The notes under the pieces were generated by a model that worked only from the letters and a program-made list of their open reading frames with translations, was not told where the DNA came from and did no database searches. A program made the position numbers and the translations under genes. This document shows positions 1 through 53,939 of a stretch of 64,000 nucleotides of DNA, piece after piece (position 1 is the stretch's first letter; each line of letters begins with the position of its first letter). The DNA comes from Mobula hypostoma (lineage: Eukaryota), in the NCBI RefSeq assembly GCF_963921235.1, contig NC_086109.1:1426001-1490000 (forward strand), read 5' to 3'.

Positions 1-3000
1 ACGCAGTCCAGAGACCCAGATGGTAGTTTGCCTCCCTGGTGCCAGGGTCCGGGATGTTTCTGATCGCGTCCAAGATATCCTGAAGTGGGAGGGAGAGGGG
101 CCAGAGGTCGTGGTACATATAGGTACCAATGACATATGTAGGAAAGGGAAGAGGTCCTGAAAGGACAATATAGGGAGTTGAGAAAAAGAACCATAAAGGT
201 AGTAATCTCGGGATTACTGCCTGTGCCACGCGACAGTGAGAGTAGGAACGCAATGAGCTGGAGGATAAATGCGTGACTGAGGGATTGGAGTGGGGGCAGG
301 GATTCAAGTTTTTGGATCATTGGGACTTCTTTTGGCGCAGGTGTGACCTGTACAAAAACGATGGGTTGCACTTGAATCCTAGGGGGAACAAACATCCTGG
401 CAGGGAGATTTGCGAAGGCTACTGAGGTGACTTTAAACTAGAATGGTTGGGGGGTGGGAATCAAATTGAAGAGATTAGGTGGGAGGAGGTTAGTTCCCAA
501 ATAGAGAAAGCTAGAAGACAGTGTGTGAGGGAGCATAGGCAGGGGACAGAGATCGGGAGCATTCAGACCGAAGATATAGGGGAGAAGGAAGAAAAAGATA
601 ACAAAGTTGTTTGCTCCATTAAGGACAAACAGAGAGTAAGAGGTGGAAGGTTTCTTAAATGCATCTATTTTAATGCTAGGAGCATTGTAAGAAAGGTGGA
701 TGAGCTTAGAGCATGGATTAATACCTGGAAATATGATGTTGTAGCTATTAGTGAAACATGGTTGCAGGAGGGGTGTGATTGGTGACTAAATATTCCTGGA
801 TTTCGTTGCTTCAGGTGTGATAGAACAGGAGGGGCAAGAGGAGGAGGTGTTGCATTGCTTGTCAGAGAATATATAACAGCGGTGCTCTGGCAAGATAGAT
901 TAGTGGACTTGTCCAGGGAGACTATTTGGGTGGAATTGAGGAATGGGAAAGGTGTAGTGATGCTTATAGGGGTGTATTATAGACCACCTAATGGCGAGCG
1001 AGAATTGGAGGAGCAAGTTTGTAAGGAGATAGCAGATATTTGTGGTAAGGACAAGGTTGTGATTGTGGGAGATTTTAATTTTCCACGCATTGACTGGGAA
1101 GCCCATTCTGTAAAAGGGCTGGATCATTTGGAGTTTGTCAAATGTGTGCAAGATAGTTTTTTGCAGCAATACATAGAGGTACCAACTAGAGAAGGGACAG
1201 TGTTGGATCTCCTGTTAGGGAATGAGATAGGGCAGGTGACGGAGGTATGTGTTGGAGATCACTTCGGGTCCAGTGATCACAGTGCCATTAGTTTCAATAT
1301 AATTATGGAGAAGGATAGGATTGGACCCACGGTTGAGATTTCTGATTGGGGAAAGGCTATCTTTGAGGAGATGCGAAAGGATTTAGAAGGAGTGGATTGG
1401 GACAATTTGTTTTATGGGAAGGATGTAGTAGAGAAATGGAGGTCATTTAAAGGTGAAATTTTGAGGGTACAGGATCTTTATGTTCCTGTTAGGTTGAAAG
1501 GAAAGGTTAGAAGTTTGACAGAGCCATGGTTTTGAAGGAATACTGGAAACTTAGTTTGGAAAAAGAGAGGGATTTACAATAAATATAGGCAGCATGGAGT
1601 AAATGTGGTGTTTGAGGAAAATAAAGAATGTAAAAAGAATCTTAAATAAATTAGAAAAGCTAAAAGAAGATATGAGGCTGCTTTAGCAAGCAAGGGGAAA
1701 ATAAATCCAAAGGGTTTCTACTGTTATATTAATAGCAAAAGGATAGTGAGGGATAGTGAGGGTCCCTTAGAGAATCAGAGTGGACGGCTATGTGCAGAGT
1801 GGGGGAGATTTTGAACAATTTCTTTTCTTCGGGATTCACTAAGGAGAAGGATACTGAATTGTGTAAGGTAAGGGAAACAAGAAGGGTAGTTATGGAAAGT
1901 ATGATGATTAAAGAAGAGAAAGTACTGGCACTTTTAAGAAATATAAAAGTGGATAAGTCTCTGGGTCCAGACAAGATATTCCCCAGGACCTTGAGGGAAG
2001 TTAGTGTGGAAATAGCAGGGGCTCTGACAGAAATATTTCGAATGTCATTAGAAACGGGGATGGTGCCAGAGGATTGGCGTATTGCTCATGTTATTCCATT
2101 GTTTAAAAAGGGTTCTAAGAGTAAACCTAGCAATTATCAGCCTGTGAGTTTGACGTCAGTGGTGGGTAAATTGATGGAAACCATTTTTAGAGATGGTATA
2201 TATAATTATCTGGATAGACAGGGTCTGATTAGGAACATTCAACATGGATTTGTGCGTGGAAGGTCACGTTAGACAAATCTTATTGAATTTTTTGATGAGG
2301 TTACTAGGAAAGTCGACGAGGGTAAATTAGTGGATGTTGTCTATATGGACTTCAGTAAGGCCTTTGACAAGGTTCCACATGGAAGGTTAGTTAGGAAGGT
2401 TCAATCGTTAGGTATTAATATTGAAGTAGTAAAATGGATTCAGCAGTGGCTGAATGGGAGACATCAGAGAGTAGTGGTGGATAACTGTTTATCAGATTGG
2501 AGGCCGGTGACTAGTGGTGTGCCTCAGGGATCTGTACTGGGCCCAATGTTGTTTGTCATATATATTAATAATCTGGATGATGGGGTGGTAAATTGGATTA
2601 GTAAGTATGCAGATGATAATAAGATAGGTGGCGTTGTGGATAATGAAGTAGGTTTTCAAAGCTTGCAGAGAGATTTAGACCAGTTAGAAGAGTGGGCTGA
2701 AAGATGGCAGACAGAGTTTAATGCTGATAAATATGAGGTGCTACATTTTGGTAGGACTAATCAAAATAGAACATACATGGTAAATGGTAGGGCATTGAAG
2801 AATGCAGTAGTACAGAGGGATCTAGGAATAATGGTGCATAGTTCCCTGAAGGTGGAATCTCATGTGGATAGGGTGGTGAAGAAAGCTTTTGGTATGCTGG
2901 CCTTTATAAATCAGAGCATTGAGTTTAGGAGTTGGGATGTAATGTTGAAATTGTATAAGGCATTGGTGAGTCCAAATTTGGAGTATTGTGTACAGTTCTG

Positions 3001-4779: not shown

Positions 4780-5545
4780 ACAAAATAACTGTGAATAAAA
4801 AAAGTGCTACAGCACACAAATATAAAAGTACTGAGATAGTACAATACGGATGCAATACTGCTTAGCGCTGTGATGTGAGGTTCAGCAGGGTCACAGCCTC
4901 AGGGAAGAAGCTCTTCCTGTGCCTGCTGGTGCGGGAGTGGAGGCTCCTGTAGTGCCTACCGGCTGGGAGGAGAGTGAAAAGTCCATGGCTAGGGTGAGAT
5001 ACATCCCTGATAATGCTTTTCACCTTTCCCAGGCAGCATTTATGGTAGATGTTCTCAATGGTGGGCAATTGGGTGCCGATAATCCACTGGGCAGTTTTCA
5101 CCACACGCTGGAGTGCTTTGCGGTCCGATATGGGACAATTGCCATACCACACTGAGATGCAGTTGGTGAGTATGCTCTCAATGGTACAGCAGTAAAAGTC
5201 CATCAGTATCCTGGGACAGAGGTGAACTTTCCTGATGCTCCGCAGGAAATAAAGGTGCTGTTGCACCTTTTTGATCAGGATGGAGGAGTTCAGGGACCAG
5301 GTGAGATCCTCGGATATGTGGACATCAGGGAATTTGAAGCTTGATACACGCTCCACTACAGCTTCGTTGATGTAGATGGGGACGAGAGTGTGGCTCCTTG
5401 CATACCTGAAGTCCACAATGATCTCCTTGGTCTTCTGGGTGTTAAGGGTCAGGTTGTTGTCAGCACACCATGCGGCCAAGTGCTGGACCTCGTCCCTGTA
5501 GGCTGTCTCGTCATCCCCTCTGATCAGGCCAACCACCGTGGTGTC
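4780..5545 (-). mobile_element. Rex1/Babar-like non-LTR retrotransposon, 3' fragment
   Basis: ORF 4862-5536: WCADNNLTLNTQKTKEIIVDFR, HLYFLRSIRK, SFFPEAVTLLN. Confidence 0.85.
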
Positions 5546-5709
5546 GCCATATGTACAGAGTACTGAAAAAATAGTGACTGACAGATCAGCCCTCTGGGAT
5601 TATGACTGCCTTGTGCAATAGGTGTCAGGTGCTAGAGAGACTGTATTCATTCCTTGTATGAATGGAAGAAAATTGATATAGCACAGGGGGAAAAGATTTA
5701 ATTTAGTTC

Positions 5710-5989: not shown

Positions 5990-6472
5990 GAAGTATAGGA
6001 GGCGACGAGCAGGATAAAAGACCACAACACAATACAATTCCATTCTCTTGTCTTCTTGTAACCTCTCATACCCTGATTTATCAAGAATCTAACAAACTCC
6101 ACCATAAATACACCCAATCACCTGGCCTCCACAGCTGCTGGTGGCAATAAATTTATGACCCTCTGGCTAACAAAAAATCCGCTTCATCTTCGTTCTTAGA
6201 TGTCCCTCTATTCTGAGGATATGCCCTCTGATCCCAGATTTCCCCACTATAGGAAACATACTCTCCAAATCCACACTACTTAAACCTTTCAAGATTCGAT
6301 AGGTTTCAATGAGATTCCCCCCCCCCCATTGTTTAAATTCCAGCAAGTACAGTCACAAAGCCCTCATGCGATCCTCATATGATAAGGTTTTCATTACAGG
6401 AATCGTTTTTGTGAACGGCCTTGGAACCTTCTCTGATGTCAGTGCATACTTTTGTAGATAAGGGGCGCAAAA
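5990..6472 (-). mobile_element. Old CR1 3' fragment (left part of the element split by the 6473-10706 insertion)
   Basis: gataaggggcgcaaaa at the left junction joins aaactgctttcgatattgc at 10707 to give a continuous antisense CR1 sequence. Confidence 0.65.
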
Positions 6473-9400
6473 GGAACAGAGCCTCATAGAGCGGGCAGCG
6501 TAGTTTGCGGGCTGCAGAGTGAGCCGGGAGCAGAGTGAAGACTTAAGGGCTTCGGCTCAATGGGCTTAGGCGGAAACGGGCGAGGCGAGGAAGGATTGGC
6601 ATTCATTTTCTGTTGTTATTTGAGGAGAGGGGCAGAATGAGCGTGAGGGCAGTTTGCTGTTCTTGGTGTCGGATGTGGGAGGCCCTGGAGTCTCCAAGCC
6701 TCCCGGACGTCTACATCTGCGCCAAGTGCATCAAGTTGCAGCTCCTAAGGGACCGCGTTACGGAACTGGAGCTGCAGCTCGATGACCTTCGTCTGGTCAG
6801 GGAGAGTGAGGAGGTGATAGAGAGGAGTGGAAGGCAGGTGGTCACACTGGGGCCACGGGAGGCAGACAAGTGGGTCACGGTTAGGAGGGGGAAGGGGAAG
6901 AGTCAGGTAATAGGGAGTACCCCGGTGGCTGTGCCCCTTAACAACAGGTACTCCTGTTTGAGTACTGTTGGGGGGGACAGCTTACCCAGGGAAAGCGACA
7001 GTGGCCGTGCCTCCGGCACAGAGTCTGGCCCTGTAGCTCAGAAGGGTAGGGCAAGGAAGAGGAGGGCAGTTGTGATAGGGGACTCGATAGTAAGGGGGTC
7101 AGATAGGCGATTCTGTGGACGCAGTCCAGAGACCCGGATGGTAGTTTGCCTCCCTGGTGCCAGGGTCCGGGATATTTCTGATCGTGTCCAAGATATCCTG
7201 AAGTGGAAGGGTGAGGAGCCAGAGGTCGTGGTACATATAGGTACCAATGACATAGGTAGGAAAAGGGATGAGGTCCTGAAAGGAGAATATAGGGAGCTAG
7301 GAAGGGAGTTGAGAAAAAGGACCGCATAGGTAGTAATTTCGGGATTACTGCCTGTGCCACGCAACAGTGAGAGTAGGAATGCGATGAGGTGGAGGATAAA
7401 TGCGTGGCTGAGGGATTGGAGCAGGGAGCAGGGATTCAAGTTTTTGGATCATTGGGACCTCTTTTGGCGCAGGCGTGACCTGTACAAAAAGGACGGGTTA
7501 CACTTGAATCCTAGGGGGACCAATATCCTGGCAGGGAGATTAGCAGAGGCTACTGAGGTGACTTTAAACTAGAATGGTTGGGGGGTGGGAATCAAATCAA
7601 AGAGGCTAGGCGTGAGGAGGTTAGTTCACAACAGAGGGATGGGAACCAGTGCAGAGAGACAAAGGGGTGTAAAGTGAGGGTAGAAGCAAAAAGTACAAAG
7701 GAGAAAAGTAGAAGTGGCAGGCCGACAAATCCAGGGCAAGCATCAAAAAGGGCCACTTTTCAACATAATTGTATAAGGGCTAAGAGAGTTGTAAAAGAGC
7801 GCCTGAAGGCTTTATGTGTCAATGCAAGGAGCATTCGTAATAAGGTGGATGAATTGAAAGTGCAGATTGTTATTAATGATTATGATATAGTTGGGATCAC
7901 AGAGATATGGCTCCAGGGTGACCAGGGATGGGAGCTCAACGTTCAGGGATATTCAATATTCAGGAGGGATAGACATGAAGGAAGGGGAGGTGGGGTGGCG
8001 TTGCTTGTTAAAGAAGAGATTAACGCAATAGAAAGGAAGGACATAAGCCGGGAAGATGTGGAATCGATATGGGTAGAGCTGCGTAACACTAAGGGGCAGA
8101 AGACGCTGGTGGGAGTTGTGTACAGGCCACCTAACAGTAGTAGTGAGGTCGGAGATGGTATTAAACAGGAAATTAGAAATGTGTGCAATAAAGGAACAGC
8201 AGTTATAATGGGTGACTTCAATCTACATGTAGATTGGGTGAACCAAATTGGTAAAGGTGCTGAGGAAGAAGATTTCTTGGAATGTATGCGGGATGGTTTT
8301 TTGAACCAACATGTCGAGGAACCAACTAGAGAGCAGGCTATTCTGGACTGGGTTTTGAGCAATGAGGAAGGGTTAATTAGCAATCTTGTCGTGAGAGGCC
8401 CCTTGGGTAAGAGTGACCATAATATGGTGGAATTCTTCATTAAGATGGAGAGTGACATAGTTAATTCAGAAACAAAGGTTCTGAACTTAAAGAGGGGTAA
8501 CTTTGAAGGTATGAGACGTGAATTAGCTAAGATAGACTGGCAAATGACACTTAAAGGATTGACGGTGGATATGCAATGGCAAGCATTTAAAGGTTGCATG
8601 GATGAACTACAACAATTGTTCATCCCAGTTTGGCAAAAGAATAAATCAAGGAAGGTAGTGCACCCGTGGCTGACAAGAGAAATTAGGGATAGTATCAATT
8701 CCAAAGAAGCAGCATACAAATTAGCCAGAGAAAGTGGCTCACCTGAGGACTGGGAGAAATTCAGAGTTCAGCAGAGGAGGACAAAGGGCTTAATTAGGAA
8801 GGGAAAAAAAATTATGAGAGAAAACTGGCAGGGAACATAAAAACGGACTGTAAAAGCTTTTATAGATATGTAAAAAGGAAAAGACTGGTAAAGACAAATG
8901 TAGGTCCCCTGCAGACAGAAACAGGTGAATTGATTATGGGGATCAAGGACATGGCAGACCAATTGAATAATTACTTTGGTTCTGTCTTCACTAAGGAGGA
9001 CATAAATAATCTTCCAGAAATAGTAGGGGACAGAGGGTCCAGTGATATGGAGGAACTGAGCGAAATACATGTTAGTAGGGAAGTGGTGTTAGGTAAATTG
9101 AAGGGATTGAAGGCAGATAAATCCCCAGGGCCAGATGGTCTGCATCCTAGAGTGCTTAAGGAAGTAGCCCAAGAAATAGTGGATGCATTAGTGATAATTT
9201 TTCAAAACTCGTTAGATTCTGGACTAGTTCCTGAGGATTGGAGGGTGGCTAATGTAACTCCACTTTTTAAAAAAGGAGGGAGAGAGAAACTGGGGAATTA
9301 TAGACCGGTTAGCCTAACATCGGTGGTGGGGAAGCTGCTGGAGTCAGTTATCAAGGATGTGATAACAGCACATTTGGAAAGCGGTGAAATGATCGGACAA

Positions 9401-10706
9401 AGTCAGCATGGATTTGTGAAAGGAAAATCATGTCTGATGAATCTCACAGAATTTTTTGAAGATGTAACTAGTAGGGTGGATAGGGGAGAACCGGTGGATA
9501 TGGTATATTTGGATTTTCAAAAGGCTTTTGACAAGGTCCCGCACAGGAGATTAGTGTGCAAACTTAAAGCACACGGTATTGGGGGTAAGGTATTGATGTG
9601 GGTGGAGAATTGGTTAGCAGACAGGAAGCAAAGATTGGGAATAAACGGGACCTTTTCAGAATGGCAGGCGGTGACTAGTGGGGTACCGCAAGGCTCAGTG
9701 CTGGGACCCCAGTTGTTTACAATATATATTAATGACTTGGATGAGGGAATTAAATGCAGCATCTCCAAGTTTACGGATGACACGAAGCTGGGTGGCAGTG
9801 TTAGCTGTGAGGAAGATGCTGAGAGGATACAGGGTGACTTGGATAGGTTGGGTGAGTGGGCAAATTCATGGCAGATGCAATTTAATGTGGATAAATGTGA
9901 AGTTATCCACTTTGGTGGCAAAAATAGGAAAACAGATTATTATCTGAATGGTGGCCGATTAGGAAAAGGGGAGGTGCAACGAGACCTGGGTGTCATTATA
10001 CACCAGTCATTGAAAGTGGGCATGCAGGTACAGCAGGCGGCGAAAAAGGCGAATGGTATGCTGGCATTTATAGCGAGAGGATTTGAGTACAGGAGCAGGG
10101 AGGTACTACTGCGGTTGTACAAGGCCTTGGTGAGACCACACCTGGAGTATTGTGTGCAGTTTTGGTCCCCTAATCTGAGGAAAGACATCCTTGCCATAGA
10201 GGGAGTACAAAGAAGGTTCACCAGATTGATTCCTGGGATGGCAGGACTTTCATAAGAAGAACGACTGGATGAACTGGGCTTGTACTCATTGGAATTTAGA
10301 AGATTGAGGGGGGATCTGATTGAAACGTATAAAATCCTAAAGGGATTGGACAGGCTAGATGCAGGAAGATTGTTCCCGATGTTGGGGAAGTCCAGAACGA
10401 GGGGCCACAGTTTGAGGATAGAGGGGAAGCCTTTTAGGACCGAGATTAGTAGTAACTTCTTCACACAGAGAGTGGTGAATCTGTGGAATTCTCTGCCACA
10501 GGTAACAGTTGAGGCCAGTTCATTGGCTTTATTTAAGAGGGAGTTAGATATGGCCCTTGTGGCTACGAGGGTCAGGGGGTATGGAGGGAAGGCTGGGGCG
10601 GGGTTCTGAGTTGGAGGATCAGCCATGATCATAATAAATGGTGGTGCAGGCTCGAAGGGCCGAATGGCCTACTCCTGCACCTATTTTCTATGTTTCTATG
10701 TTTCTA
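6473..10706 (+). mobile_element. Near full-length CR1 LINE (about 4.2 kb)
   Basis: 5' UTR; ORF1 6637-7572 with one premature TAG at 7327-7329; ORF2 about 7563-10610 with a frameshift near 8810 and a stop at 10253-10255; (tttctatg)n tail at 10685-10706. Confidence 0.97.
6637..7572 (+). pseudogene. CR1 ORF1p: CxxC...CxxC zinc finger, coiled coil, SGNH/GDSL esterase; one in-frame stop
   Basis: ATG at 6637; CSWC...CAKC; LRDRVTELELQLDDL; VIGDSIVRG, HIGTND, DGLHLN; 936 nt in one frame. Confidence 0.9.
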
Positions 10707-13919: not shown

Positions 13920-15500
13920 GGGTTCAATGTCTATTTAGGAATCGGATGGCAGAGGGGAAGAAGCTGTTCCTGAATCGCTGACTGTGTGCCTTCAGGTTTC
14001 TGTATCTCCTACCTGATGGTAACAGTGAGAAAAGGGCATGCCCTGGGTGCTGGAGGTCCTTAATAATGGATGCTGCCTTTCTGAGACACCAGTCCTTGAA
14101 GGTGTCCAGGGTACTTTGTAGGCTAGTACCCAAGATGGAGCCGACTAAATATATGACCCTCTGCAGCTTCTTTCTGTCTTGTTCAGTAGCCCCACCACCA
14201 ACCCCCCCCCCCGTGCTAGACAGTGATGCAGTCATCAGAATGCTCTCCACAGTACATTTATAGAAGTTTTTGTGTATTTTTGTTGACATACCAAATCTCT
14301 TCAAACTCCTAATGAAGTATATTAACTGTCTTGCCTTCTTTATAGCCGATCGATATCTTGGGACCAGGTTAGGTCCGCAAAGATCTTGACAGCCAGGAAC
14401 TTGAAACTGCTCACTCTCTCCACTTCTGATCCCTCTATGAGGATCGGTATGTGTTCCTTTGTCTTACCCTTCTTGAAGTCCACAATCAGCTCTTTTGTCT
14501 TTACTGACGTTGAGTGCCAGGCTGATGTTGTGACACCACTCCACTATTTCGTATATCTCGCTCTTGTACGTCCTCTCTTCTCCATCTGAGAATCTACCAA
14601 CAATGGCTGTATCATCAGCAAATTTATAGATGGTATTTGAGCTATGCCTAGCCACACAGTCATAGGTATAGAGAGAGTAGAGCAGTGGGCTAAGCACACA
14701 CCCCTGAGGTGCACCAGTATGAGGAGGAGGTAATATCACCAATCAGCACAGATTGTGGTTTTCCAGTTAGGAAATCGAGGATCCAATTGCAGAGGAAGAT
14801 ACAGAGCCCCAGGTTCTGTAACTTAACAAGTAAGAGTGTGGGAATGATGGTATTAAATGCTGAGCCATTGTCAATGAACAGCATCCTGACATAGGTGTTT
14901 GTGTTGTCTAGGTGGTCTAAAGCCATGTGGAGAGCCATTGAGGATGCATCTGCCATTGACCTAGTGGCAATAGGCAAATTGCAATGGGTCCAGGTCCTTG
15001 CTGAGGCAGGAGTTCAGTCTAGTCATGACCAACCTCTCAAAGCATTTCATCACTGTCGATGTGAGTGCTACCAGGCAATAGTCGTTAAGGCAGCTCACGT
15101 TATTCTTCTTAAGCACTGGTACAATTGTTGCCTTTTTGAACCAGTAGCCCTTGAATACTCCCACTAGTTGGTTGGCACAGGTTTTCAGAGCCTTACTAGG
15201 TACTCCCTCGGGACCTTACACCTTATGAGGGTTCACTCTCTTTAAAGGCAGCCTAACGTTGGCCTCTGAGATGGAGATCACAGGGTCTTCAAGTGCAGAA
15301 GGGATCTTCACAGCTGTAGTTATATTCTCCCTTTCAAAGCGGGCATAGAAGGCATTGAGTTCATCTGGTAGTGAAGCATCGCTGCCATTCATGCTGTTGG
15401 GTTTCACTTTGTAGGAAGTAAAGTCTTGCAGTCCCTGCCAGAGGTGTCGTACATCTGATGTCACCTCCAACCTGGTTTGAAATTGTCTCTTCACCCTTGA
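13920..15500 (-). mobile_element. Rex1/Babar-like LINE, degenerate ORF2
   Basis: ORFs with [66 protein letters not shown]. Confidence 0.88.
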
Positions 15501-26468: not shown

Positions 26469-29400
26469 TGGGCAGTTGAGGTCAGGTGACCAAACATTTT
26501 GAAAAGCTCGAACAGATAAATAGAGGGACAGCTCAAGCGAAGCGGCCAGTGAGTGAGTGGGCCAGTGAAGGAGTGGAGCTTTGAGGCTTTAACTCGAGAG
26601 GCTTCGATGAGAAGAGGCAGAGGACAAGCTAGCTCGCAGTCAGTTTTTGCAATGTCTCCTGAGACGGTGATGTGCCTCTCATGTGAGATGTGGCAGTCTT
26701 GGGGGAACGCCCCTCTCCCGCAGAGTCACATCTGCCAGAAGTGCATACGGCTGAGCAATCTGGAAGACTGTGTAAGGAATCTGAAGCAGCAGCTGGATGA
26801 CCTTCGACTCATAAGGGAGAATGAGGCAGTCATAGATGAGAGCTACAGGGAGGTAGTCACACCTAGGCTGTCAGAAGCAGGTTGTTGGGTGACAGTCAGA
26901 GGGGGGAAAGTGAAGGTGAGCAGACAGGTAGTGCAGAGCACTCCTGTAGCCATTCCCCTGAATAATAAGTTTACAGTCCTGGATACTGTTGGCGGGGATG
27001 ACCGACCAGGTGTGAGCCACGGTGGCAGGGCCTCCGGCACTGAGTCTGACCCTGTGGTGCAGAAGGGTGGGACGGAGAAGAGGAGAGCTGTCGTCATTGG
27101 AGACTCTATAGTCAGGGGAGCAGACAGGAGATTTTGTGGACGTGAGAAGGACACCCGCATGGTTTGTTGCCTCCCGGGTGCCAGGGTCCGGATGTCTCTG
27201 ACCGGGTGCACGACATCCTGGTACGAGAGGGAAAGCAACCAGGAATCGTGATACATGTTGGGACCAATGACATAGGCAGGAAGAGGGATGAGGTCCTGAA
27301 GTGTGAGTTTCGGGAATTAAGCAAAAGGTTGAAGAACAGGACCTCAAGGGTAACATTCTCAGGATTGCTGCCAGTGCTATGAGACAGAGATGGTAAGAAT
27401 TGGAGGAGATGGCAGTTGAATGCGTGGCTGAGGAGTTGGTGCAGGGAGCAGGGTTTTAGATTTTTAGATGATTGGGATCTCTTCTGGGGAATTTGGGACC
27501 TGTACAGATTGGATGGGTTGCATCTGAACTCGAGGGGGAGCAATATCCTTGCAGGTATGTTTGCTAGCATGGTTCGGGAGGGTTTAAACTAATTTGCGAG
27601 GGGGATGGGACCCAGAGCGATAGAGCAGTGAAAGAAGTGCATGGAGTAAAGCCAGATCTAACATACAGAGAGGCTTTGAGGAAAGAGAAGCAGAATAAAC
27701 GGTGTAAAGACAGGAAGGTAGGAGGGCTGAAATATGTGTACCTCAATGCAAGAAGCATCAGGAACAAAGGTGATGAACTGAGAGCTTGGATACATACATG
27801 GAATTATGATGTAGTGGCCATTACAAGGGCTTGGCTGGCACCAGGGCAGGAATGGATTCTCAATATTCCTGGATTTCAGTGCTTTAAAAGGGATAGAGAG
27901 GGCAGAAAAGGGGGAGGAGTGGTGGCATTACTGGTCAGGAATACTATTACAGCTACAGAAAGGGTGGGTAATGTAGCAGGATCCTCCTTTGAGTCAATAT
28001 GAGTGGAAGTCAGGAACAGGAAGGGAGCAGTTACTCTACTGGGGGTATTCTATAGGCCCCCTGGTAGCAGCAGAGATACAGAGGAGCAGATTGGGAGGCA
28101 GATTTTGGAAAGGTGCAAAAATAACAGGGTTGTTATCATGGGTGACTTTAACTTCCCTAATATTGATTGGCACCCGATTAGTTCCAAGGGTTTAGATGGG
28201 GCAAAGTTTGTTAAGTGTGTCCAGGATGGATTCCTGTCACAGTAGGCGGACAGGCCGACCAGGGGGAATGCCATACTAGATCTAGTACTAGGTAATGAAC
28301 CAGGTCAGGTCGCAGATCTCTCACTGGGTGAGCATCCGGGGGACAGTGACCACCGCTCCCTGACCTTTATAATTATCATGGAAAAGGATAGAATCAAAGA
28401 GGACAGGAAAATTTTTAATTGGGGAAAGGCAAATTATGAGGCTATAAGGCTAGAACTTGCGGATGTGAATTGGGATGATGTTTTTGCAGGGAAATGTACT
28501 ATGGACATGTGGTCGAGGTTTAGAGGTCTCTTGCGGGATGCAAGGTCTCTTCCCGGTGAGGAAGATAAAGAATGGTAGGGTGAAGGAACCATGGGTGACA
28601 AGTGAGGTGGAAAATCTAGTCAGGTGGAAGAAGGCAGCATACATGAGGTTTAAGAAGCAAGGATCAGATGGGTCTATTGAGGAATATAGGGAAGCAAGAA
28701 AGGAGCTTAAGAAGGGGCTGTGAAGAGCAAGAAGGGGGCATGAGAAGGCCTTAGCGAGTAGGGTAAAGGAAAACCCCAAGGCATTCTTCAATTATGTGAA
28801 GAAAAAAAAAAGATGACAGGAGTGAAGTTAGGACCAATTAGAGATAAAGGTGGGAAGATGTGCCTGGAGGCTGTGGAAGTGAGCGAGGTCCTCAATGAAT
28901 ACTTCTCTTCGATATTCACTAATGAGAGGGAACTTGATGATGGTGAGGACAATATGAGTGAGGTTGATGTTCTGGAGCATGTTGATATTAAGGAAGAGGA
29001 GGTGTTGGAGTTGTTAAAATACATTAGGACAGGTAAGTCCCTGGGGCCTGACGGAATATTCCCCAGGCTGCTCCACGAGGCGAGGGAAGAGATTGCTGAG
29101 CCTCTGGCTAGGATCTTTATGTCCTCGTTGTCCACGGGAATGGTACCAGAGGATTGGAGGGAGGCGAATGTTGTTCCCTTGTTCAAAAAAGGTAGTAGGG
29201 ATAGTCCGGGTAATTATAGACCAGTGAGCCTTACATCTCTGGTGGGAAAGCTGTTGGAAAAGATTCTTAGAGATAGGATCTATAGGCATTTAGAGAATCA
29301 TGGTCTGATCAGGGATAGTCAGCACGGCTTTGTGAAGGGCAGATCGTGTCTAACAAGCCTGATAGAGTTCTTTGAGGGGGTAACCAGGCATATAGATGAG

Positions 29401-31630: not shown

Positions 31631-32407
31631 TCCCACACCGAACGGAGCATACAGGGTTAATGGTAAGGCACTGAGGAGTACAGTGGAACAGAGGGATCTG
31701 GGAATACAGATACAAAATTCCCTAAAAGTGGCGTCACAGGTAGATAGGGTCGTAAAGAGAGCTTTTGGTACATTGGCCTTTATTAATCAAAGTTTTGAGT
31801 ATAAGAGCTGGAATGTTATGATGAGGTTGTATAAGGCATTGGTGAGGCCGAATCTGGAATATTGTGTTCAGTTTTGGTCACCAAATTACAGAAGGATATA
31901 AATAAGGTTGAAAGAGTGCAGAGAAGGTTTACAAGGATGTTGCCTGGACTTGAGAAACTGAGTTACAGAGAAAGGTTGAATAGGATTTAATAGATTAGGA
32001 CTTTATTCCCTGAGCGTAGAAGAATGAGGGGAGATTTGATAGAGGTATATAAAATTATGACGTGTATAGATAGAATGAATGCAAGCAGGCTTTTTCCACT
32101 GAGGCAAGGGGAGAAAAAAAAACCAGAGGACATGGGTTAAGGGTGAAGGGGGAAACGTTTAAAGGGAACATTAGGGAGGGCTTCTTCACACAGAGAGTGG
32201 TGGGAGTGTGGAATGAGCTGCCAGACGAGGTGGTAAATGCGGGTTCTTTTTTAACATTTAAGAATAAATTGGACAGATTCATGGATGGGAGGTCTATTGA
32301 GGGATATGGTTCGTGTGCAGGTCAGTGGGAGTAGGCAGAAAATGGTTCAGCACAGACAAGAAGGGCCAAAAGGCCTGTTTCTGTGCTGTAGTGTTTCTAT
32401 GGTTTCT
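31630..32407 (+). mobile_element. 5'-truncated CR1 nested in the Helitron
   Basis: ORFs 31605-31901 and 32143-32334; tail gtttctatggtttcta abuts Helitron IEYQKRG. Confidence 0.9.
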
Positions 32408-35256
32408 AAGTATCGAATACCAAAAGCGGGGTCTGCCTCATTTGCACTGTCTGCCGTGGCTCGATGAGGCATCCAAGCCAAGACCACAAGAATATGATAA
32501 ATTCGTTCAAGCAGTAATACCAGACCCAAATGAAGATCCCGAGCTGCATGAATTAGTATTGAAGCACATGATACATGGTCCGTATTGCACCACTAAATCA
32601 CCGTGTTGGCAAAATGGTAGATGCAGTAAGAGGTACACGAAGCCATTTATTGAGCGTACAAGGTGTGGGGATGATTCATATCCGGTGTATAGAAGACAGT
32701 CTGTAAAAGGGAGGATTCGAAGGTCATCGCGTAGGACGACAAAGTCGAACTATAACTTCTGAAAGGGTGGTCCCCTATAATGCCCAACTAATAAAATTTT
32801 TCAATTGTCATCTAATGTAGAAATATGCTCATCTGTCAACTCCTTCAGATACGTGATCAAATATACCATGAAGGGGCGTCATCGGGCAATTTTTGGAGTG
32901 AATAGAGAAGACGAAATCACACAGTATTTGACAGGCAGATACATTGGGTACTCTGAAGCTGTCGGATTGATACTGGATTTGCAATTCACGAGCGGGAATC
33001 AGCCGTTGTTCTCCTTCAAGTTCACCTTCCCCAACAGCATCAAGTGGTCTTTCGAGATAATGTTGCTGTACAACTGAGTAATGACATGTCAAGAACCACT
33101 TTAACGGAATTCATGGATCTTTGCACTCGCGATGCATTTGCAAGAACCCTGTACTATGCGGATATTCCCAGATTCTACACGCGGACTAATAGGAGATGGG
33201 AAAGAAGGAGAATGGGGAAAAGAGTGGAGGAGTACTCCGGCATTTTTGAAGCAAATGTTCTGGGTCGAAGTGGTGACCTCTACTATATGAGACTTCTTCT
33301 CCATCACACAAAGGGACCAGTGTCTTTCCAATCATTGAAAACACATGATGGAGATATCTCTCCATCATTTAAAGACGTCTGCAGAGAGAGAGGATTGTTG
33401 CAAGCTGCCGATCATTGGCAGCAAGCTATGAAAGAGGCTGAGAGAACAAGAATGCCCAGAGCAATGAGAGATTTGTTTGTCGTTTCAGTGCTAACAAACA
33501 CTGAAATCAACAATCCACAGCAATTATGGAACCGGTTCAAGAATGCAATATCTGAAGATTTCTTACAAATAGAGAGGAGAACCATCAATGATCCTAATAT
33601 GATGATCGATGAGAGGCATTATGGACAAACTCTTCTGTATTTACGAGAGAAACTTGAGAACTTGGGCAAAACACTTGAAGAATATAACTTGCCAACTCCA
33701 AGAAACGGTACAATTACTCAAAGCGCTGGCAATCTGGAATTATTGCGTGAACTGCAATACAACAGAGACGAACAGCAGGAATTTGTTTCACAGAAGGAGC
33801 CCCTATTGAATAATGAGCAAAGAGAAGTATATGAATATGTGTGTGACTGCTTGGAAAGGGATCTCTCTTCAATGATTTTCATTGATGCACCAGGAGGAAC
33901 GGGCAAGACATTTATCATCAACTTGATCCTCACTAAAGTTAGGGGAGATGGTGGAGTTGCTGTCGCTGTAGCATCATCAGGTATTGCAGCAACATTGATG
34001 CCTGGTGGTTAGACAGCGCATTCAAGATTCAAGATACCCTTCAAAGTCAATGAAGATGCCCTTTGTAACGTCGATAAAAACATCAATACTGCAATTTACT
34101 CCAAAATGCGAGGCTTATTGTCTGGAATGAGTGCCCCATGGTTAGGCGGGAGAGCTTTGAAGCCGTGGTCCGCACTCTTCGTGATGTATGTGGCAAGAAT
34201 GAGGCCTTTGGGGGTATTTTAACTTCTAGCAGTTGTGAAACGCGGAAATGATGCTGATGTGGAGAATTCATCCATTAAAAAATCGTACTTATGGAGAAGA
34301 TTCGTCAAGTTTCAATTGAAGAGAAACATGCGATTGGGTGAGGGAGAAGGACGATATTCTCAGTTCTTATTGGATGTTGGAGAAGACAAGATTGAGAAAA
34401 ATGAAAACAATGAAATCGAATTAGCTGAAGATATGATTATGCCAGCAACAACTATGGAAGAATGCATTGATCTCACCTACCCGACATTCGACAATCCTGC
34501 AGAACTCTTCTCGAGCAATTCTATCTTGGTTCCTCTTAATGAAATGATGCGAAAAATAAACTTCACATGCATTAGGCGCTTCCCTGGAATCATGAAAGAA
34601 TACTGCTCCTTCAATGACGTAAGTGAAGGAGCTAACGCCACTCATTTTCCTACAGAATTCCTTGATTCCGTCGAACTCTCTGGATTGCCACCACATAAAC
34701 TGGAATTGAAGAGGGGATCTCCCATCATTTCAGTGAGGAACTTGGATCCACCAAAGCTTTGCAATGGAACACGAATGACGTTGGAAGAACTGCACGACAA
34801 TCTCATCGTAGCAAAGATACACATTGGTGCGTTCAAAACTGACATTTTCATGATCCCAAGAATTACTCTCAGTTTATCGGAAGGGGAAGATGTCCCTCTT
34901 CAGCAGAGCCAGTTCCCGATACAGTCATGCTTTGCTATGACTATACGTAAGGCACAAGGCCACACCACGGAGAATGTGTTGATTTATTTGGAGAAACCGG
35001 TACTGTACTTCAGCATGGTCAGCTGTATGTGGCTATAACCGGGGGGGAAAGAAATGAAAACGTTAGAGTATTCCTGAAGAGTGGCAGATCAACCAGAAAT
35101 GTGGTCACAAAAAGTGTCCTTCATTAAACGAGGAGGACCAATATTTGTCTTGCTACACGTCTTTCTTCTTTAATACACTGAGTTTTTCTTTAATTTCCAA
35201 AGCACATCCCATCACAGTGCACTACCTTTCTCTCAACGGATCACCCGGTTGTCTAG

Positions 35257-37320: not shown

Positions 37321-38380
37321 TATCATCATCAACATCATCAGGTGCTGTGCCCAGTTTCAGCTTTGCCATGGCCCACACACTCCTGTTTCGGGTCAAGTGG
37401 ATCAATTCATTGGAATTCATTTCCAGTTCTCTGGATGCTGTCTCCATCATCATTTGTCTTTGTCTTCCTCTTGCTTTCTTCCCCTCAATCTTTCTCATAA
37501 TTACCGTGCATTCTAACTCCTCTTTCCCAATCACATGTCCAATGAAGTTACGTTGCCTTTTCATGATCTATACATTATTTCTCTTTTTGTGTTTGCTCTG
37601 TTCATGAAATCCTCGTTAGATAGTCGTTTCGTCTATGATATTCTTTGCATCCTCTTCACAAACCACATCTGTGTTGCTTCAATTCGTTTCCTCATGTTAC
37701 TAGATATTGTCCAACATTCTGAGCCATATAACATAACTGGATAAACGTTTCAGTACTCTGAGGCGGGTTGTCATGCCTAGTTTAGTATTGGTCAGTATAC
37801 TCTTCATTCTCATAAAGGTGTTTTTTGCCATCCCTATTCTTCTTTTGATGTCCATGTCACACCTGCCATCTGATGTCACCCAGTTTCCTAAGTAGCAAAA
37901 GTTCTTTACTTGTTTTATGTCTTCCCCGTTCATTCCCAGTCTGCAGATAGGATTCTCCTTCTTTCTGGATATCATCATACATTCTGTCTTTTTGCAATTG
38001 ATAGATAGACCCATTTTTGCACTTTCTTCAACAATTATATCAATTAAGTTTTGTAGTTCTTCCTCCATACTTGTAACTAACACAGTCTCATCTGCATATC
38101 TGATATTAATGATGTTTTCACCGCCAACTTTGATTCCCAAGATGTCTCTTATTTTTTGTAATATTGTTTCACTGTACACATTAAATAAATCAGGGGAGAA
38201 AACACACCCTTGTCTAACGCCTCTCTTGATTTTTGTAAACTGATTCACTTCTTCATCTATTCTTACAGCGGCAGTTTGTTCCCAGTACAGATTTCTGATT
38301 AGGAGAAGGTCTCTCGAATCTAGATCTTGAGTTTTCTGTAATATTTCAAATAAGTTACTGTGCTTCACTTTATCAAATAC
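37321..38380 (-). mobile_element. RTE-clade LINE, 3' fragment
   Basis: RGVRQGCVFSPDLFNVY, NIRYAD, FCYLGNWVTSDGRC, KIEGKKARGRQR; (gat)n tail at 37321-37340. Confidence 0.9.
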
Positions 38381-39558
38381 TGGGCCTGAACACCTCCCTC
38401 TGCACCTGGATCCTAGACTTCCTGACTGGGAGACCTCGGTCAGTCCGGATTGGAAGCAGCATCTCCAACACCATCACACTGAGCATGGGGGCACCCCAGG
38501 ACTGTGTGCTCAGTCCACTGCTGTTCACTCTGCTGACCCACGACTGTGCTGCAACACACAGTTCGAACCAAATCATCAAGTTCGCCGATGACACGACCGT
38601 GGTAGGTCTCATCAGCAAGAGCGATGAGTCAGCATACAGAGAGGAGGTGCAGCAGCTAACGGACTGGTGCAGAGCCAACAACCTGCTCCTGTACTCGAAT
38701 CCTCTTGCTATGAATGCCAGCATACCATTCGCCATTTTCACCGCCTGCTGTACCTGCATGCCCACAGGGAGGTACTACTGCAGTTGTATAAGGCCTTGGT
38801 GAGACCACACCTGGAGTATTGTGTGCAGTTTTGGTCCCCTAATCTGAGAAAAGACACCCTTGCCATAGAGGAGTACAAAGAAGGTTCACCAGATTGATTC
38901 CTGGGATGGCAGGACTTTCATATGATGAAAGACTGGATCGACTAGGCTTATACTAGTTGGAATTTAGAAGATTGAGGGGGGATCTTATTGAAACGTATAA
39001 AATCCTAAAGGGATTGGACAGGCTAGATGCAGGAAGATTGTTCCCGATGTTGGGGAAGTCCAGAACAAGGGGTCACAGTTTGAGGATAAAGGGGAAACCT
39101 TTTAGGACCAAAATGAGGAAAAACTCCTTCACACAGAGAGTGGGTTTACGAGTGCAGCTTGTGGTGTAAATGTCTGTAATGGCGGAAAGAGAGACCCCGA
39201 TGATCTTCTCAGCTGACCTCACTATCCGCTGCAGGGTCCTGCGATCCGAGACGGTGCAATTTCCGAACCAGGCAGTGATGCAGCTGCTCAGGATGCTCTC
39301 AATACAACCTCTGTAGAATGTGGTGAGGATGGGGGGTGGGAGATGGACTTTTCTCAGCCTTCGCAGGAAGTAGAGACACTGCTGGGCTTTCTTTGCTATG
39401 GAGCTGGTGTTCAGGGACCAGGTGAGATTCTCCGCCAGGTGAACACCAAGAAATTCGGTGCTCTTAACGATCTCTACCGAGGAGTCATCGATGTTCAGAA
39501 GAGAGTGGTAGCTCCGTGTCCTCCTGAAGTCAACAACCATTTCTTTTGTTTTGTTCAC
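38381..39558. mobile_element. Scrambled mosaic: Rex(+) 38381-38685, CR1(-) 38682-38765, CR1(+) 38766-39142, Rex(-) 39143-39558
   Basis: Translations switch family and strand at microhomology junctions; see findings. Confidence 0.85.
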
Positions 39559-42500: not shown

Positions 42501-43690
42501 TACCATCCCCAACCTCACTACTACTGTTTGGCCTGTACACAACTCCCACCAGTGTTTTCTGCCCCTTAGTGTTATGCAGCTCTACCCATATCGATTCCAC
42601 ATCCTCCCGGCTAATGTCCTTCCTTTCTATTGCGTTAATCTCCTCTCTAACCAGCAATGCTACCCCACCTCCTTTTCTTTCATGTCTATCCCTCCTGAAT
42701 ATTGAATATCCCTGAATGTTGAGCTCCTATCCTTGGTCACCCTGGAGCCATGTCTCTGTGATCCCAACTATATCATAATCATTAATACCAATCTGCACTT
42801 AATTCATCCACCTTGTTACGAATGCTCCTTGCATTGACACACAAAGCCTTCAGGCTTGCTTTTACAACACTCTTAGCCCTTGTACAATTATGTTGAAAAG
42901 TGGCCCTTTTTGATTTTTGCCCTGGATTTGCCGGCCTGCCACTTTTACTTTTCACCTTACTACTTTGCTTCTACCCTCATTTTACACCCCTGTCTCTGCA
43001 CTTGTTCCCATACCCCTGTTGTGAACTAACCTCCTCTCTCCTAGTCTCTTTAATTTGATTCCCACCCCCCAACCATTCTAGTTTAAAGTCACCTCAGTAG
43101 CCCTCACAAATCTCCCCGCCAGGATATTAGTCCCCCTAGGATACAAGTGTAACCCCCCGTCCTTTTTGAACAGGTCACACCTGCACCAAAAGAGGTCCCA
43201 ATAACCCAAAAACTTGAATCCCTGCTCCCTGCTCTAATCCCTCAGTCACGCATTTATCCTCCAGCTCATTGCGTTCCTACTCTCACTGTCGTGTGGCACA
43301 GGCAGTGATCCGGAGATTACTACCTTTGCGGTCCTTTTTCTCAACTCCCTTCCTAACTCCCTATAATCTCCTTTCAGGACCTCTTCCCTTTTCCTACTTA
43401 TGTCATTGGTACCTATATGTACCACGACCTCTGGCTCCTCTCCCTCCCACTTCAGGATATCTTGGATGCAATCAGAATTATCCCGGACCCTGGCACCAAG
43501 GAGACAAACTAACATCTGGGTCTCTGGACTGCGTCCACAGAATCGCCGATCTGACACCCTTACTATCGAGTCCCCTATTACTACTGCCCTCCTCTTCCTT
43601 TCCCTACCCTTCTGAGATACAGGGCCGGACTCTGTGCTGGAGGCACGGCCACTGTCGCTTCCCCCAGGTAAGCTGTTCTCCCCCCAACAG
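39556..43690 (-). mobile_element. Degenerate long CR1 (family of 6473-10706), interrupted by a solo LTR
   Basis: ORF1 esterase 43246-43557; slip site 43081-43087; APE 42163-42657; RT pieces 41400-41741 and 39556-40136. Confidence 0.93.
40131..41266 (+). mobile_element. Solo LTR (1136 bp)
   Basis: TGTCA...GTGACA termini; AATAAA near 41188; removing it plus one 5-bp flank (gtgag/ataag, a degenerate TSD) restores the CR1 sequence. Confidence 0.82.
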
Positions 43691-53278: not shown

Positions 53279-53939
53279 CTGCCCAGAGAGAGAAAAGTGT
53301 GAGGATGATCCTGTTGCAAGGAACGGCAGCACTAGGCAAAGGGGCTCGTTCCGGCGACAAACCGGCTGTGGCCCCTTTCTAGCCTTACGAACGGGCTTGC
53401 TGATGCCCCAGGGCAGAGTTTAAACCCAAGGCAGGGAGATGGGAAACTGAGCAAAGACCGAGAAGGGAGAGAAGCAGGACTGGGATATGGAAACTGGACT
53501 CGTCCTTGGAGGGCAGAGACAGAAATGGTGGAAAACACAGTGGCCATACGGAATGGCAGGGAACTGTGCGAGAGTCTAGTGGATGTGAGGGCAATGGTAC
53601 ACACTGTGGCAGTAAAGGAGATGAAGCTTCAGGCCTGTATGCTGAACGGAACGTGATAGGGTTTCTGGCAGAATACCTGGGTGAGATGGGAAAGGAAGGT
53701 GGGGGAAAAGATTAGTTAACAGACCAGTCACCCTGCGAGAAGGGATGATGCACAATCGCGTGCGGTGGCGGTGGGAGCTGGAGGACGAGGCTCGGTCACG
53801 ACGCTTCGTGACGCTCTAACTGATCACACTGTAACCTCATCTCCACATTTCCACCTCGCACCAGTGAGCTTTCAGCCTCTTCTCACGAAGAATCTCTCGA
53901 CCTCCATCTTCTAAAGAGTCTCTGCTTCACAGCCATTTG

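Follow-up and report, generated by a model that had tools for sequence, protein, structure and literature searches.

The 64,000-nucleotide stretch of Mobula hypostoma DNA analysed here (contig NC_086109.1, positions 1,426,001 to 1,490,000; hereafter the window) holds, at 6470..10706 of the forward strand, a near-full-length copy of a CR1 long interspersed nuclear element (LINE) with two open reading frames (ORFs). Comparison of its ORF1–ORF2 junction with relatives makes it likely that esterase-type CR1 LINEs produce their ORF2 protein as an ORF1–ORF2 fusion, by programmed –1 ribosomal frameshifting on the heptamer U_UUA_AAC. As far as sequence can tell, the junction has the features of a gag-pol-type –1 site, with the exception of the usual RNA structure. 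ORF1 (6637..7572, forward) ends in ACT TTA AAC TAG, with the slippery heptamer T_TTA_AAC (7563..7569) as its final bases and the stop codon TAG (7570..7572) immediately 3' of it; an earlier note on this DNA had placed the heptamer in X_XXY_YYZ phase directly before the stop, and the coordinates agree. That note had also put ORF2 in the –1 frame with no usable AUG, which we confirm. The –1 frame is closed by a TGA two codons 5' of the heptamer (7554..7556), is open from 7557 for 427 codons and holds the APE endonuclease domain (PF03372). No ATG occurs in it until codon 216 after the heptamer (8208–8210, in the residues AVIMG), within the APE domain, and a TTG stands at 7578. A G-tract (G6-T-G3, 7580..7589), a candidate linear stimulator, begins 11 nt past the heptamer. 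Across the variable linker (7570..7802), only the –1 frame is open, with no stops as against four and seven in the other two frames.

Tandem slippage is the standard model for frameshifting on U_UUA_AAC. In CR1, most ribosomes would terminate at the UAG or UAA and release ORF1p, while a minority, holding tRNA-Leu in the P site and tRNA-Asn in the A site, would move back by one base and go on translating. The slip junction in the 7563 subfamily would read Thr-Leu-Asn/Leu-Glu-Trp, and TLN-LEW, rather than the transframe TLK or TFK peptides proposed earlier, is the main product predicted by tandem slippage. The slip rate would set the ORF1p:ORF2p ratio, and the fusion would tether the enzyme to the ORF1p multimer. 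More speculatively, ribosomes might pause because the unstructured G-run, with a protein or rRNA bound to it, then lies at the mouth of the mRNA channel.

The same layout was said to occur at three further sites of the window, and all three are borne out. The second junction (432..458, forward; heptamer 432–438, TAG, G-tract from 449) has an ORF1 of the type found at 7563 and a different linker and ORF2. The third, in a divergent subfamily (27583..27609, forward; heptamer 27583–27589, TAA, G-tract from 27600), has its –1 frame closed five codons upstream of the heptamer, and the fourth lies on the reverse strand (43061..43087; heptamer 43087–43081, TAG, G-tract from 43070). Bare TTTAAAC is found 13 times when both strands of the window are counted, and the heptamer followed by TRR, N7 and G5 matches four times, always at one of the four ORF1 ends, against an expectation of 0.01. 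Over the whole genome, a slightly longer junction pattern gives 17,709 exact matches versus one for the reversed control. From the heptamer to the NARS motif, the linkers of the window copies span 54–86 codons, a wider range than the 70–80 first given. The heptamer is kept, as had been claimed; the complete divergence of the linker holds for 7563 versus 27583 (6% amino acid identity) but not for 7563 versus 43087 (86% nucleotide identity).

Conservation within the genome was tabulated at ORF1 ends located by an esterase profile whose end falls before the C-terminus, with seven loci repeating another's place dropped. The exact heptamer is present at 151 of 177 sampled ends: 4/4 in the window, 3/4 in unselected flanks, 115/140 with esterase-only queries and 29/29 with a junction-spanning DNA query, the last being a biased sample. 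Most of the other 26 ends come from decayed copies and differ by a single substitution or by a deletion. In four of the 26 TTTAATC replaces the heptamer; loci with that form (L068/L149, L153, L157 and L160) lie together on one small contig and are probably one mutated copy within a segmental duplication. Among the 151 copies with the heptamer, a stop follows directly in 145, and the heptamer is in phase with the profile-matched frame in 141. An APE motif was found in 120 of these copies, in the –1 frame in 94 and in other frames in 26, as is expected of decayed copies, and 76 of the 94 have no Met before the APE domain. The TGA two codons upstream closes the –1 frame in 33/33 copies of the 7563 group, so initiation further upstream cannot explain the conserved FKL. 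The heptamer, its phase, the adjoining stop and the –1 position of ORF2 recur across about ten linker groups, in which most linkers share 1–24% amino acid identity between lineages, and in the distant relatives described below; the comparison thus supports the frameshift fusion that the earlier note had put forward.

Codon choice indicates that the heptamer is conserved at the nucleotide level, beyond what the protein needs. Its first T occupies the wobble position in nine different codons (GGT 61, ACT 34, TGT 25, AGT 22 and five more), and the codons that follow are minority choices in the element, TTA accounting for 17 of 108 Leu codons and AAC for 17 of 54 Asn codons; together these point to the RNA letters themselves being kept. 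In the –1 frame, no position shows a conserved start codon. Codon 5 is TGG in 39, TTG in 39, TGC in 33 and AGT in 26 of the 151 copies, which speaks against a near-cognate start such as the TTG at 7578 that had been raised as an option.

Distant relatives carry the same junction. Of 38 loci from a metagenome scan, 16 show the junction; many of them come from one record set and hence do not represent 16 independent hosts. TTTAAAC is in phase in 14 of the 16, followed directly by a stop in 11 of these 14, and the remaining two junctions, TTTAAAT and TTTAAAA, still fit X_XXY_YYZ. The amniote-type and annelid-type relatives share 24–37% ORF1 identity with the window copy or with each other. ORF1 of the amniote-type group, which we take to be bird-like, has the C-terminus RALN seen in named turtle, lizard and snake proteins. 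The closest named relative of the annelid-type lineage is from Ridgeia piscesae (86%), and an LN end is found in 89 of the 120 best relatives of that group. At L112, L114, L110 and L118, ORF1 is open to its LN-stop and the –1 frame is open for 403–835 codons. In 17/17 hand-picked representatives, the linker contains no stop in the –1 frame versus 1–11 in another frame. Viral and prokaryote collections scanned with the vertebrate alignment returned nothing, or three bacterial esterase-like loci at 24–25% identity.

The junction is also present in published CR1-group consensuses. In the supplement of PMC13343379, of which the first 400 letters per consensus were inspected by eye and with no denominator, heptamer-stop junctions account for 17 of 23 matches to tttaaacta and one of seven to tttaaactg. 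Their labels, with names expanded by us, cover alligator, crocodile, bowfin, bullfrog, chimaera, coelacanth, sharks, rays, a lizard and one teleost Crack. The latter, AldAff_Crack-2, shows what by eye resembles an esterase ORF1 end with heptamer and stop, although the same paper states that none of the vertebrate Crack elements had a detected ORF1 (PMC13343379).

The C-terminal ends of ORF1 proteins add a further line of evidence. Among 150 profile hits in 50% clusters, 90 have a DGxH motif near the end and give 75 distinct tails. Asn is terminal in 43 of them (LN 29; GN 8, all QGN; KN 1, SKN; EN 2; SN 2; FN 1), and LN, GN and KN are the dipeptides of U_UUA_AAC, G_GGA_AAC and A_AAA_AAC, which are among the four heptamers listed as shiftiest (PMC5009743). 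For 28 of the 29 LN tails, the preceding residue has a codon ending in T available (p 0.011, from rows that are not independent). In a tree of 72 esterase domains built with the tails excluded, GN, KN, EN and LN alternate inside one starred clade. Four database proteins with natural indels (P0022, P0027, P0265 and P0276) read esterase-FKL-linker-APE, which shows the register of the fusion, not its mechanism. Separately, the GN-clade ORF1 homologues P0088, P0108 and P0124 end near FF or FL (QFFH, RFFR, GFLGRV) and might rely on U-rich slip sites. A search of the genome for a CR1 family with a purine heptamer gave 76 matches against 61 in the control, and none was seen.

Downstream of the stop, 112 of the 151 genome copies have a run of four or more G beginning at +11, at least four G lie within +11 to +15 in 150, and G stands at +11 in all 23 hand-picked representatives. 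The run is at the same position in the amniote-type and annelid-type loci. Codon 6 of the –1 frame varies (TTG, CAG, GAG, GGG, AAG or CTG), and 135/151 copies have GGG as codon 7 despite an element-wide share of GGG of 34 in 109 Gly codons. At the G-run, too, conservation is of the nucleotides.

Several observations weigh against frameshifting at such a site, or against its generality. The G-run starts at +9 in one subfamily of 17 copies, and in the published consensuses, which are rough and gapped and were read by eye, it covers +11 to +15 in six of 18 junctions and is shifted or absent in 12. Minimum-energy folds of +6 to +85 in the 23 representatives share no stem-loop; folding z-scores range from –2.2 to +1.6, in a model that leaves pseudoknots outside and for a purine-rich region with little to pair. 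Of the earlier proposal of a stimulating G-rich structure, then, the tract stands and the conserved structure does not. A Met occurs in the linker of 18/94 genome copies, and an in-frame ATG lies one or two codons past the stop in four of eight amniote-type representatives (L110, L115, L118 and L131). Of the 75 tails, 32 do not end in Asn, and two whole clades of the esterase tree lack terminal Asn; hence esterase ORF1s do not all use the site. The GN and KN classes are known as proteins alone, with their codons inferred, and the 23 representatives had been picked for having the heptamer.

In these comparisons, the G-tract acts like a linear motif kept at constant spacing from the heptamer, with no conserved stem-loop. 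A G-quadruplex was rejected as the general stimulator: annelid-type copies have a single G6 run, which makes an intramolecular quadruplex impossible there. G4Hunter-type means are 0.8–1.6 in 22 of the 23 representatives and 2.2 in one. A long-range partner of the tract within the element was likewise rejected, the best duplex, with the 3' tail, at –20.0 kcal/mol being no better than sites at –19.5 and –19.2. A protein-triggered frameshift switch outside RNA viruses would be, to our knowledge, without precedent. Structural stimulators lie 5–9 nt downstream, characterised ones further out involve trans-acting factors, and alphaviruses provide a structure-free stimulator for which pairing with rRNA has been suggested (PMC5009743). 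We raise as a tentative possibility, on balance doubtful, that a factor, either a host G-tract binder or ORF1p, binds the unstructured G-tract at +11 and triggers the CR1 –1 frameshift from annelids to birds, the heptamer swapping among U_UUA_AAC, G_GGA_AAC and A_AAA_AAC.

The main rival to frameshifting, which we consider unlikely, is termination followed by reinitiation, in which ribosomes would restart near the ORF1 stop in the –1 frame at an AUG, at a near-cognate codon or, as in L1, without needing an AUG, with the G-run tethering the small subunit. The first ATG of L1 ORF2 can be replaced by any sense codon (PMC1965478), and AUG-independent initiation is favoured for mammalian LINEs (PMC5009743). 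The ATG past the stop in the four amniote-type representatives, at –1-frame codon 4 or 5, would suit such a restart, as would the TTG that many genome copies have at codon 5 or 6. However, reinitiation predicts neither a fixed X_XXY_YYZ with fixed wobble bases nor the LN, GN and KN ends; the variable codon 5 offers it no conserved start, and the 27583 and L080 types have none of ATG, CTG, GTG, TTG and ACG in the first 15 codons. Given the amniote-type ATGs, some lineages may use both frameshifting and reinitiation.

Two further explanations appear very improbable. The heptamer might be kept only for a Leu-Asn at the C-terminus of the esterase, with ORF2 expressed from a spliced or sub-genomic RNA, and Asn is indeed invariant in the last column of a 27-protein alignment. 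Yet a protein need would leave TTA, AAC and the T before them free to vary, the solved ZfL2-1-type esterase that ORF1 matches and its clade do without an LN end, and the linker is kept open in the –1 frame right back to the heptamer in the 17 representatives counted above. In contigs of four sequencing runs over 6450–8700, no joint across the junction was common to runs among the matches listed, which is not evidence either way. It is similarly hard to credit that the shift is other than tandem slippage with a 3' stimulator, being instead a P-site slip from AAC to AAA provoked when termination at the stop is slow, or the result of a polymerase slipping in a G-run just upstream. A stop adjoins the heptamer in the 145 copies noted above, frameshifting in pea enation mosaic virus needs a nearby stop (PMC5009743), and G6 lies directly 5' of the heptamer in some subfamilies. 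Against this, a stop-driven single slip needs no TTT half, yet TTT is as conserved as the rest, and the 7563 subfamily has no upstream G-run. Either kind of slip would yield the same fusion protein as tandem slippage.

The element at 6470..10706, whose 5' boundary is approximate, is on its architecture assigned to the esterase-type CR1 elements. ORF1 encodes an SGNH esterase (PF13472 match; profile match to PDB 4C1B, 'ORF1-encoded protein', E 3e-38), preceded, by eye, by a zinc-finger-like Cys-x2-Cys...Cys-x2-Cys N-terminus and a coiled-coil-like stretch. ORF2 comprises an APE part (7803..8840, PF03372 E 3.6e-12) and then a reverse transcriptase (RT) part (8798..10255, PF00078 E 1.7e-32), both on the forward strand and separated by a decay frameshift. 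The 3' end (10685..10706) consists of 8-base repeats (TTTCTATG)n without poly(A). A 3' end of 8-base repeats without poly(A) is a feature of CR1, and this element combines it with the APE–RT order of ORF2 and the esterase ORF1. The shark and ray consensuses labelled CR1 carry junctions of the same type as 7563, and vertebrate CR1 ORF1 is described as esterase type (PMC13343379). The copy is dead: a premature TAG (7327–7329) interrupts ORF1, and ORF2 has a frame break at ~8800–8840 and an early stop at 10253–10255. Its family is abundant in the genome, the matches to the junction region of 7563 showing 98–100% identity in 40/40 scored among 3,483 candidates; the nearest named proteins are from rays and skates, at 78–94% identity.

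Comparison of the copies at 432 and 7563 (positions 1–1300 and 7160–8460 of the window) gives 87–91% identity over ORF1 and the first 70 nt past the heptamer, falling to 54–60% in the linker and APE region, as if ORF1 and ORF2 modules had been exchanged shortly past the slip site. A TTTAAAC at 53419 with a G-rich stretch after it (53419–53445) was rejected as an old junction on account of no upstream esterase profile match and no DNA similarity to the sampled copies; the resemblance is probably chance or a very old relic. Elsewhere in the window, open frames at 32301–35038 on the forward strand carry Rep/helicase-like motifs (EYQKRGLPHLH and DAPGGTGKT, the latter GPGGTGKT-like), and we take this region, by eye, to be the remnant of a Helitron-like DNA transposon. 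Other LINE RT fragments lie among the CR1 copies at 37700–38473, 4862–5599 and 13924–14463, all on the reverse strand, and look by eye RTE-like and Rex1/L2-like.

Among the retrotransposons of most vertebrate species, the CR1 group predominates (PMC13343379), and how LINE ORF2 is translated is an open question (PMC5009743). A conserved slip site reduces that question to the scale of a 90-base reporter. If frameshifting is right, CR1 ORF2p would be a Gag-Pol-like fusion tethered to the esterase ORF1p; an ORF2 annotated from its first ATG would lose much of the endonuclease, and calls of 'intact' CR1 copies should span the frameshift. As a frameshift signal, a linear G-rich stimulator at +11 would be of a new type, and if a factor does act as the switch, the host cell or the element could set the output of reverse transcriptase. 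Our full-text literature searches found no paper on CR1 frameshifting; older CR1 descriptions and repeat-database comments fall outside their coverage, so an earlier mention is possible. In the portions of text covered, 'CR1' does not occur in PMC5009743, nothing on CR1 frameshifting appears in PMC5006619, PMC4245944, PMC2951350 or PMC11835228, and 'frameshift' is absent from the main texts of PMC3905857 and PMC4316615 and from the searched text of PMC13343379.

Our comparison with known systems reveals partial parallels. Like CR1, ZfL2-1 (CR1-1_DR) and human L1 have bicistronic LINE RNAs, and ZfL2-1 shares the esterase ORF1 (PDB 4C1B). By comparison, the ZfL2-1-like clade (8 rows, support 100/99, assigned by resemblance to 4C1B) lacks terminal Asn, and the ORFs of L1 do not overlap, its ORF2 being thought to start by unconventional initiation (PMC5009743). 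The Dictyostelium non-LTR retrotransposons TRE5-A and TRE3-A are likewise two-ORF APE-RT elements, and their ORF2 is stated to require a –1 frameshift (PMC5911963); they differ from CR1 in their amoeba hosts, an unrelated ORF1 and a poly(A) tail. In two-ORF Penelope-like elements, a frameshift with a pseudoknot can set ORF1 apart (PMC8557442), and some Penelope-like elements carry the same SGNH esterase (PMC3905857), whereas their RT class, their GIY-YIG endonuclease and the pseudoknot stimulator, none having been found for CR1, set them apart.

Viral sites, and those of the retroviral and LTR gag-pol type, similarly fuse a structural ORF to a polymerase ORF (PMC5009743). These sites have an RNA structure 5–9 nt downstream, whereas in CR1 the stop comes at +1 and the G-run, which is unstructured, at +11. 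In the arterivirus PRRSV, nsp1beta together with PCBP acts on CCCANCUCC, a linear motif that lies 11 nt 3' of the shift site, as the G-tract does in CR1 (PMC5009743); the motif there is C-rich, the slip site is different and the shift is –2, while the CR1 tract is only a candidate binding site. The heptamer itself is shared with infectious bronchitis coronavirus, which uses the same U_UUA_AAC, a member of the shiftiest class for mammalian ribosomes (PMC5009743).

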